In this document: one piece after another, positions 57,999 to 58,766 of the stretch
How the letters are laid out: every line of letters begins with the position of its first letter
Position numbering within the stretch: position 1 is the stretch's first letter
Source of the DNA: an uncultured Clostridia bacterium
GTDB lineage: Bacteria > Bacillota > Clostridia > Christensenellales > CAG-314
Reading direction: 5' to 3'
NCBI GenBank assembly: GCA_934230325.1
Contig: CAKQEP010000002.1
Span: 76,682 to 140,681 of the forward strand
Length of the DNA: 64,000 nucleotides
Made by a program: the position numbers and the translations under genes
The notes under the pieces: model-generated
Database searches by the model: none
Told to the model about the DNA's origin: nothing
The model's input: only the letters and a program-made list of their open reading frames with translations

Positions 57999-58766
57999 CT
58001 ATCCCGCGCCTTCCAACAACATTTTGTCCGCAAGCAACGCAATAAACTCGCCGTTGGTGGGTTTCTCGTTTGCGGAATAAATTTTTACGCCAAACAAACT
58101 GTTTATGTTTTCTATCTTGCCCCTGTTCCACGCAACTTCTATCGCGTGCCTTATCGCCCGCTCAACCTTGCTGGGCGTAGTGTCGTACTTTTTTGCGATT
58201 TCCGGATACAATCCGCGCGTAATGCTGTTGATAAGCGACGGCTCGTCAACGACGCACTTTACGCCGTCACGCAAAAATTGATAACCCTTTATGTGCGGCG
58301 GTATCCCGATGCTGACAAATATCGTCGCAAGTCGCTCGTCTATACTGCGTACAAAATCGCGTACCGTCACCGACTTTTGCTTTTCCGTCGTCGCAAAACC
58401 GTTGCGAATATCCGCTATCTTATCGTCCAACTGCTTTAAATTGAGCGGTTTTAACAAATATCCGCTTGCACCGTCGGACATACACTTAAACAAAAACACT
58501 TCGCTCTTTAAATCCGACACTATGATAAATTTTGGGTTGTACTGTTTTCCCGCAAAATGCCGCATAAGGTCCAAACCGTTTACGTTTTGCATAAGAACGT
58601 GCGTGATTACGATTTGCGCGCCCGTTTCTTCCAAGCGGCGTATTGCGTCATAACCGTCATCCGTGTTGAGAACGATTTTTACGTCGGAACGTTGTCCAAA
58701 ATACGAATCTATACTCTCGCGCATTTCTTTATCGTCGCTGATAACGGCTATTTTTGTTAACTTCAT
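57999..58766 (-). CDS. spo0A: Spo0A-family response regulator, atypical (His at the phospho-acceptor position)
   Basis: The C-terminal Spo0A_C signature is [16 protein letters not shown]...[35 protein letters not shown]. The receiver domain keeps DD, S and K, but IVITHVLM replaces the consensus LVLLDIIM. Confidence 0.88.
   Translation of the reverse strand: [255 protein letters not shown]

Follow-up and report, generated by a model that had tools for sequence, protein, structure and literature searches.

According to the textbooks, sporulation is entered through phosphorylated Spo0A (Spo0A~P). In this work, we analyzed a spo0A gene located in a window of 64,000 nucleotides (the whole stretch of DNA studied, from contig CAKQEP010000002.1 of an uncultured Clostridia bacterium; positions are those of the window), whose 255-aa product is, by sequence, predicted fold and synteny, a Spo0A that carries His56 in place of the phospho-acceptor aspartate (Asp56 in Bacillus subtilis). 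The host species is one of the uncultured human-gut Clostridia, near Christensenellales-type Spo0A sequences. We propose, with a probability of about 0.6, that the protein is a pseudo-receiver Spo0A with an activity governed independently of aspartyl phosphorylation, probably by its expression level or by partners. An earlier reading made from the sequence alone (hereafter the sequence-only reading) had already suggested phosphorelay-independent control, and this suggestion is now supported by (i) a clade of related species with an acceptor other than aspartate, (ii) purifying selection, and (iii) synteny with a canonical spo0A locus. An Asp-less Spo0A would be a considerable surprise for a sporulation specialist; the mechanism that we offer for it is a proposal.

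Identity of the protein and of residue 56

The C-terminal domain had been taken for Spo0A_C in the sequence-only reading, and both the Pfam match (Table 1) and the NCBIfam equivalog model TIGR02875 ('spore_0_A') bear this out, the latter with 219.7 bits against a cut-off of 200 and with residues 5-252 covering model positions 4-258 of 262. The domain aligns with the solved Spo0A-C structures 1fc3 and 1lq1 at E 4e-37 (phmmer), and in the phmmer alignment the 0A-box recognition helix differs at one residue from the solved Spo0A proteins. An AlphaFold2 model of the 255-aa protein has a mean predicted local distance difference test (pLDDT) score of 87.4 and contains a regular (beta/alpha)5 receiver, with a mean pLDDT of 86-95 per 10-residue block over residues 1-120. 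When compared by Foldseek, the receiver half of the model matched phosphorylated Spo0A-N (1qmp) with template modeling (TM) scores of 0.84-0.86, and the effector half matched Spo0A-C (1fc3, 1lq1) with TM scores of 0.89-0.93 and root-mean-square deviations of 1.0-1.9 A.

Three approaches agree in placing His56 where canonical Spo0A has Asp56, as previously read. The phmmer alignment with the Geobacillus stearothermophilus Spo0A receiver (1dz3, 'ilLLDIIMphlDGL') runs without gaps around the site and sets His56 on the phospho-Asp; MAFFT alignments of 120 close homologs and of 151 homologs (cluster representatives) put it in the same acceptor column; and in the AlphaFold2 model it closes strand beta3 (52-56) at the C-terminal end, the site of the acceptor. 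No alignment moved an aspartate to this column, the codon is CAC as read before, and the preceding residue is Thr55. Because the acceptor aspartate of canonical Spo0A is replaced, we file the protein as an Asp-less Spo0A variant and not as a canonical phospho-activated Spo0A. It presumably cannot be aspartyl-phosphorylated at the canonical site and, since the aspartate for the phosphoryl group is gone, would not be switched by a kinase or a phosphorelay in the textbook way.

The chance that the His codon is a sequencing or assembly artefact, or that the gene is decaying, is negligible. The identical protein is encoded on 21 contigs from various samples and assemblers, several with record names that point to Hadza stool metagenomes, and the six contigs compared here come from six different samples. 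Across the window and these six contigs, spo0A has nine synonymous polymorphic sites, no non-synonymous one and a single TAG/TAA stop difference, and CAC stands at the acceptor in 7/7 copies, so that the base call is supported by independent assemblies rather than by reads. Furthermore, a non-Asp acceptor is common to relatives at 53-74% identity. Sequencing error and pseudogene status were both ruled out on these grounds.

Acceptor states in relatives and remodeling of the receiver pocket

The acceptor column was read in the 120 best database homologs. His is found in two proteins, both of the H-type species of the window (99-100% identity to the query), Gln in the next ten (62-74%), Pro in 36 (51-55%) and Glu in three (48-53%), and the remaining 68 have Asp (at most 54%). 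The corresponding codons are CAC for His, CAA/CAG for Gln, CCG/CCC for Pro and GAG for Glu. In a neighbor-joining tree the His proteins are nested in the Gln clade, the Pro clade is sister to Gln/His, a Glu/Asp group lies outside and the canonical sequences come next. The simplest route of replacement would lead from D (GAY) through E (GAR) and Q (CAR) to H (CAY) or P (CCR), with one nucleotide changed at each step, and because the codons allow this route, the histidine would be a late detail of a single species. As for the question left by the sequence-only reading, whether H56 is clade-wide, the answer is thus divided: across the H/Q/P proteins aligned the loss of Asp is clade-wide, but His itself occurs in one species alone, whose relatives have Gln or Pro instead. 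On this tree His is a late, single-species derivative of Gln, and the older loss of Asp is the event that matters. For the same reason, chemistry specific to histidine cannot explain the clade, and a special role of His56 as a phospho-His or metal site was set aside as the main explanation. The relatives in metagenome-assembled genomes (MAGs) were retrieved by a receiver-specific pattern scan with one genome per species, which is uninformative on canonical second copies; the Gln type was found in MAGs named 'uncultured Clostridia bacterium' and 'uncultured Subdoligranulum sp.', and the Pro type in UMGS1403 and 'Subdoligranulum sp. CAG:314'.

The landmark positions of Bourret et al. were compared between 12 members of the clade and 69 canonical Spo0A sequences with the full quintet. 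At DD1/DD2/DD2+1 the clade has S/G-D/E-D and the canonical set D/E-D-N. In the query, pairwise and multiple alignments match DD1 with Ser10, DD2 with Asp11 and the canonical Asn with Asp12, and hence only one half of the metal-binding pair appears to be kept; D11-D12 as the acidic pair would be compatible with the Pfam match coordinates alone. Hence, of the earlier statement that the receiver keeps the acidic pair, the S/T position and the Lys, the part concerning Ser84 and Lys106 stands, but DD1 appears to be lost. The acceptor is Gln, His or Pro in the clade and Asp in 69/69 canonical sequences; D+4 is a residue other than Pro in 11/12 members and Pro in 65/69 canonical sequences; and D+7 is Asn or Ser in 12/12 and Asp in 69/69, with D+8 Gly retained in the H-type species. 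T+1 is Asp or Glu throughout the clade (12/12) as against 2/69 canonical sequences, which mostly have Ala, Gln or Ser, and K+2 is Ile, Leu or Val in 12/12 versus Phe in 30/69. Ser84 (T), Tyr103 (K-3) and Lys106-Pro107 are invariant in the clade and conserved in the canonical set, and Thr55, Asp12, Lys79/Phe80, Lys87, Glu89, Cys95 and Leu105 are invariant in this clade only. With D, DD1, D+4 and D+7 changed, the complete quintet and beta3-alpha3 loop of a canonical response regulator are lacking, and the domain has the make-up of a pseudo-receiver as defined in PMC4395418 and 10.1101/2025.06.23.661182: a PF00072 receiver fold with His at D and Ser at DD1, in which DD2, Ser84 and Lys106 are kept.

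The remodeled receiver carries the signature of selection. The ratio of non-synonymous to synonymous substitution rates (dN/dS) was calculated by domain: the receiver gives 0.05 between the Pro-clade loci L011 and L012, at a dS of 0.88, and about 0.16 between the window and locus L007, and the effector domain gives 0.01-0.05. At equal effector divergence, receiver identity in clade pairs versus canonical pairs is 0.39 vs 0.35, 0.54 vs 0.48 and 0.59 vs 0.67. By these measures the receiver is under purifying selection, and would have changed its job rather than lost it.

The sister group of the H/Q/P clade (P0051, P0063, P0074 and P0082; loci L089 and L105) has Glu or Asp as acceptor and has lost the metal-binding acidic pair, with GN, DQ or CQ there. 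Its loci have a synteny of their own, in which glycogen genes are followed by spo0A and then by a TetR gene. As judged from the alignment, this group is a second, different way to disable the same pocket.

Locus, sporulation genes and upstream region

Gene order connects the Asp-less genes to a canonical one. In L104, from a Christensenellales MAG, a canonical Asp-type spo0A is followed by veg, sipL, ispE, spoIIR, sleB and ypeB; in L088 (GCA_964612455.1), a Gln-type spo0A occupies the same position ahead of veg-sipL-ispE-spoIIR-sleB-ypeB; and in L010 (MGYG-HGUT-04528), a Gln-type gene is found in the order spo0A-polA-coaE, which is that of the window. Since this chain runs from L104 to L088 and from L010 to the window, the Asp-less genes would descend in place from the canonical gene, and the conclusion that they are true spo0A orthologs is supported. 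The Pro-clade loci have polA-coaE at a distance of 6-9 kb upstream of spo0A. In L108 and L110, two contigs introduced below, an HTH_5 gene is directly followed by veg; in L088 the HTH_5 gene upstream of veg is separated from it by a nitroreductase-like gene, a small open reading frame (ORF) and spo0A. On account of this adjacency and of the L088/L104 order, spo0A apparently moved from an ancestral sporulation cluster to the polA-coaE locus. It had also been pointed out that the usual spoIVB neighbor is missing and that polA-coaE stand next to spo0A. Both observations were borne out in the window, but the first is uninformative: the gene list of the canonical Asp-type relative L104 likewise has no spoIVB-type gene (Pfam Peptidase_S55) in the roughly 8 kb around spo0A, so the missing spoIVB would be unconnected with the loss of Asp.

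A Pfam scan detected no further sporulation gene in the 64-kb window, only housekeeping genes, and an absence over 64 kb is uninformative. The veg-sipL-ispE-spoIIR-sleB-ypeB cluster is conserved in several related species, where it is sometimes followed by a weak YabP-family match and yqfD. When the SpoIIR of L088 was used as query, the three matches examined (P0275, P0276 and P0289) came from other samples and other species, and a fourth, P0278, may belong to the MAG of L007. A SleB search yielded two variants, 74-75% identical to the SleB of L088, on contigs L108 and L110, which come from samples ERZ27286917 and ERZ28614417; these samples also hold the H-type contigs L006 and L004. The tetranucleotide correlation of L108 with the window is 0.987, compared with 0.993 for a known same-species locus and at most 0.925 for loci of other species, and the average nucleotide identities match at strain level, L108 and L110 differing by 1.7% and L006 and L004 by 1.2%. 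All six genes of the cluster (L108, 5840-12067; L110, 1-6069) are intact; between the two contigs, 64 codons differ synonymously and 18 non-synonymously, and in spoIIR the ratio is 10:0. Although the evidence is indirect, it is good support for the coexistence of the His-type Spo0A with functional genes of sporulation and germination.

Upstream of spo0A, the perfect 0A box of the window (Table 1) is found again between -110 and -131 in relatives of the Q, P and E types. TGTCGAA occurs three times on both strands of the 64 kb (30901, 49899 and 58882), versus 12.4 +/- 3.5 expected from dinucleotide-preserving shuffles, all 100 of which contain at least three copies; this rarity may reflect avoidance of spurious Spo0A sites. 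Between the 0A box and the gene lie three TTGTACAAAA-like palindromic boxes, spaced by 23 and 19 bp, which adjoin and overlap the putative spo0A promoter. The two upstream ones are the best conserved upstream columns across the H/Q/P/E-type loci (window, L007-L012 and L089), and a perfect TTGTACAAAA copy is found at only three places in the 64 kb. The reading of these boxes as variant 0A boxes was set aside, as the central CG of TGTCGAA differs in them and the recognition helix is only one residue off that of solved Spo0A. The promoter is proposed from the sequence and from a conserved CTTG...TAATAT in the upstream alignment; a consensus promoter scan did not call it. The terminator-like sites on either side of the gene suggest that spo0A is monocistronic.

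Table 1. Features of the spo0A gene, its product and its surroundings (window coordinates)
Feature	Position	Strand	Remarks
spo0A coding sequence	57999..58766	(-)	ATG start, 255 aa, GGAGG 8-10 nt 5' of start; Asp-less, probable Spo0A ortholog
Receiver (putative pseudo-receiver) domain	58416..58751	(-)	residues 6-117; Pfam PF00072 Response_reg, 63 bits
Spo0A_C DNA-binding / transcription-activation domain	58023..58325	(-)	residues 148-248; PF08769, 135.5 bits; contains recognition helix
DD region Ser10-Asp11-Asp12	58731..58739	(-)	DD1 = Ser, DD2 kept, extra Asp at DD2+1
His56 at phospho-acceptor (D) position	58599..58601	(-)	codon CAC (reverse complement of GTG)
beta3-alpha3 loop Gln60-Asn-Val-Asn63	58578..58589	(-)	D+4 Pro and D+7 Asp both gone
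Ser84 (T position) and Asp85 (T+1)	58512..58517	(-)	landmark alignment
Tyr103 (K-3), Lys106, Pro107, Leu108 (K+2)	58443..58460	(-)	landmark alignment
Perfect 0A box TGTCGAA	58882..58888	(+)	122 nt upstream of spo0A start codon
Three TTGTACAAAA-like palindromic boxes	58807..58858	(-)	58849-58858 (perfect), 58826-58835, 58807-58816
Putative sigma-A-like promoter TTGTTT-17 nt-TATTAT	58793..58821	(-)	
Terminator-like hairpin and T run	57944..57983	(-)	just past spo0A stop; -14.4 kcal/mol, z = -2.1
Terminator-like site after ferredoxin gene	58945-58962	(-)	
4Fe-4S ferredoxin, 58 aa	59063..59239	(-)	upstream neighbor of spo0A
polA	55306-57837	(-)	downstream of spo0A
coaE	54717-55319	(-)	downstream of spo0A, past polA

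Among the neighbors, the mechanically listed polA ORF (55306-58131, minus strand; 941 aa from a GTG) runs into the 3' end of spo0A. This overlap is an artefact of ORF listing, since in sister contigs polA was called from the Met at 57837, which gives 843 aa, or from slightly further upstream, which gives 878 aa. Elsewhere, the window encodes two DUF362 proteins (4037-5251 and 16702-17586, minus strand), one of them fused to a 4Fe-4S dicluster domain, and several ferredoxins and 2-oxoacid:ferredoxin oxidoreductases, which are housekeeping genes of an anaerobe.

Proposed mechanism and comparison with known systems

In the mechanism that we favor, the receiver would have evolved into an aspartate-less pseudo-receiver through loss of DD1, of the D+4 Pro and of the D+7 Asp and gain of an acidic T+1, while the DNA-binding domain, including the 0A-box recognition helix, has stayed essentially unchanged. 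Such a receiver most likely serves as a phosphorylation-independent dimerization and regulatory module biased to the active conformation, as proposed for other pseudo-receivers. The aliphatic K+2 would fit this bias: in the preprint of Bourret et al. (10.1101/2025.06.23.661182), Ile, Leu or Val at K+2 is associated with a shift to active conformations, and T+1 is described as normally small, giving access to the site. An acidic T+1, which lies beside Ser84 and Lys106, might strengthen the effect. How much active Spo0A the cell has would then depend chiefly on the expression of spo0A, and perhaps on protein partners; this expression would be governed by the gene's own promoter, with autoregulation through the conserved 0A box and a putative further factor acting at the TTGTACAAAA boxes. 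Because Asp has been replaced while spo0A and the sporulation genes stay selected, sporulation entry in the clade probably proceeds without textbook aspartyl phosphorylation. It is tempting to go further and to speculate that a whole clade of gut Clostridia embarks on endospore formation through a Spo0A that never receives a phosphoryl group, its receiver locked in an active-like state, possibly with the clade-specific acidic T+1 (Asp85) as a built-in phosphomimic facing Lys106 and Ser84, and expression control through the 0A box and the TTGTACAAAA factor replacing kinase and phosphorelay, an extension that we regard as doubtful.

Several points weigh against the proposal of a phosphorylation-independent Spo0A. 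The aspartate is required for Spo0A activity in B. subtilis and in Clostridioides difficile (PMC11210211), so a simple loss would be expected to inactivate the protein unless compensated, and compensation is what we infer here. Phosphorylation at another residue, or the activity state of the protein, cannot be read from a sequence. Our view of the genome covers about 90 kb, and the sporulation cluster is tied to the H-type species by sample co-occurrence and composition and not by a shared contig. Besides, 18/19 human Christensenellales MAGs were called non-sporulating by SpoMAG (PMC12536801).

These points leave room for other explanations, the nearest of which, although unlikely, is that the receiver is still a switch, worked by a partner protein, a small ligand or another modification, such as Ser/Thr phosphorylation (Thr55, Ser84), a phospho-His56 or a metal at Asp11/Asp12/His56. 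Purifying selection on the receiver at the level of canonical receivers would fit a switch, as would the new clade-invariant residues (T55, D12, K79/F80, K87, E89, C95 and L105), the retention of the Y-T coupling residues Ser84 and Tyr103 and of Lys106, and the precedent of pseudo-receivers regulated by partners, ligands or Ser/Thr kinases (PMC4395418 and 10.1101/2025.06.23.661182). However, no candidate partner or kinase gene is conserved beside spo0A in the H, Q and P loci, and Asp-bearing relatives, too, often have Thr at D-1.

Less probable still is a non-sporulating lineage that keeps Spo0A for other stationary-phase or colonization functions, its sporulation genes being leftovers or used otherwise. 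In its favor one may cite that spo0A is the only sporulation-specific gene in the window and has moved away from the veg-sipL-spoIIR cluster, that the wider sister group also lacks the metal-binding acidic residues, and the SpoMAG calls mentioned above; but in contigs attributed to the H-type species spoIIR, sipL, sleB and ypeB are intact, with synonymous changes in excess, and several related species have kept the cluster as well. To our knowledge, spoIIR has no role beyond sigma-E activation in sporulation, which also counts against a non-sporulating host. Thus, of the two options left by the sequence-only reading, phosphorylation-independent control of sporulation is favored over repurposing in a non-sporulating lineage. 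A divergent paralog, with a canonical Asp-bearing spo0A doing the classical job elsewhere in the genome, would be compatible with the limited part inspected and with the many non-canonical architectures in which Spo0A_C occurs in metagenomes. It is nevertheless very improbable given the score above the NCBI Spo0A equivalog cut-off, the Gln-type gene at the exact locus of the canonical Asp-type gene in a related MAG and an effector domain as conserved as in orthologs; moreover, no second spo0A copy was seen in any of the loci fetched, which are loci and not whole genomes.

The loss of the phospho-site in Spo0A-like proteins appears to be recurrent in uncultured Clostridia. When 1.84 billion cluster representatives were searched exhaustively by phmmer, 630 matched at E <= 1e-30, and the best 150 were aligned; 107 of these have a full-length receiver plus Spo0A_C, and in 22/107 another residue stands in place of the acceptor Asp (E in 8, G in 5, N in 4, S in 2, and A, Q and H in one each; they include P0130, P0133, P0158, P0163, P0173, P0176, P0181, P0190, P0202, P0204 and P0266), in a sample that is biased to relatives of the query and in which some proteins may be paralogs. 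By alignment, the whole quintet is kept in only 52/107, many of the others having D-S-N or D-G-N instead of D-D-N. From the 22/107, phosphorylation-independent Spo0A may be widespread in uncultured Clostridia. The metagenomic sporulation surveys considered here (including PMC12536801) take the presence of spo0A as a marker and do not consider the acceptor residue, so, with 22/107 of the nearest representatives lacking Asp, they may pool mechanistically different regulators. The same search also returned P0121, P0122, P0126, P0135, P0153 and P0233, of 360-450 aa, with Spo0A_C matches in three or four stretches and no receiver, which look like tandem Spo0A_C repeat proteins.

If our proposal is correct, a natural and selected Asp-less Spo0A alongside intact sporulation and germination genes would mean that the aspartyl step is dispensable or replaceable, and would provide a natural system for studying how sporulation is decided without kinases. 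A full-text literature search found no description of an Asp-less Spo0A.

Compared with canonical Spo0A of B. subtilis, G. stearothermophilus and C. difficile (1qmp, 1dz3, 1fc3 and 1lq1), the protein has the same two domains and disordered linker, both folds (TM 0.84-0.93), a near-identical recognition helix, a 0A box upstream of its own gene and, by the synteny chain, a position that supports orthology. It differs in the replacement of Asp56 by His (Gln or Pro in relatives), in the loss of DD1, the D+4 Pro and the D+7 Asp, in an acidic T+1 and in the lack of a spoIVB neighbor. All endospore formers are said to activate Spo0A at the conserved aspartate (2024 review, PMC11210211); the activation of Asp56 by a kinase or phosphorelay, universal according to that review, would be chemically impossible in the Asp-less protein.

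Aspartate-less receivers, or pseudo-receivers, include RitR, HP1043/HsrA, ChxR, GlnR, FrzS, RedZ and AmiR (Maule et al. 2015, PMC4395418; 10.1101/2025.06.23.661182). Like them, our protein has a PF00072 domain without a phosphorylatable Asp and a conserved output domain, and its largest changes are in the beta3-alpha3 and beta4-alpha4 loops, with the D+4 Pro lost, a T+1 that is not small and an aliphatic K+2; by analogy, it would work as they do, with a function independent of aspartyl phosphorylation. In contrast to them, each of T, K and K-3 is kept, Asp has given way to Gln, His and Pro rather than to Glu, Asn, Ser, Gly and Ala, the commonest residues according to PMC4395418, and the output domain is Spo0A_C, a combination that goes unmentioned in the available text of both sources; the review cites Spo0A only for D-to-E genetics. 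Spo0A_C would thus be a new output class among aspartate-less receivers.

In B. subtilis, the receiver-deletion allele sad67 is reported to show that Spo0A can drive its regulon without phosphorylation once the inhibitory hold of the receiver is removed or altered. Whereas sad67-type alleles are laboratory alleles in which part of the receiver is deleted, the Asp-less Spo0A is natural and has a full-length receiver under purifying selection.

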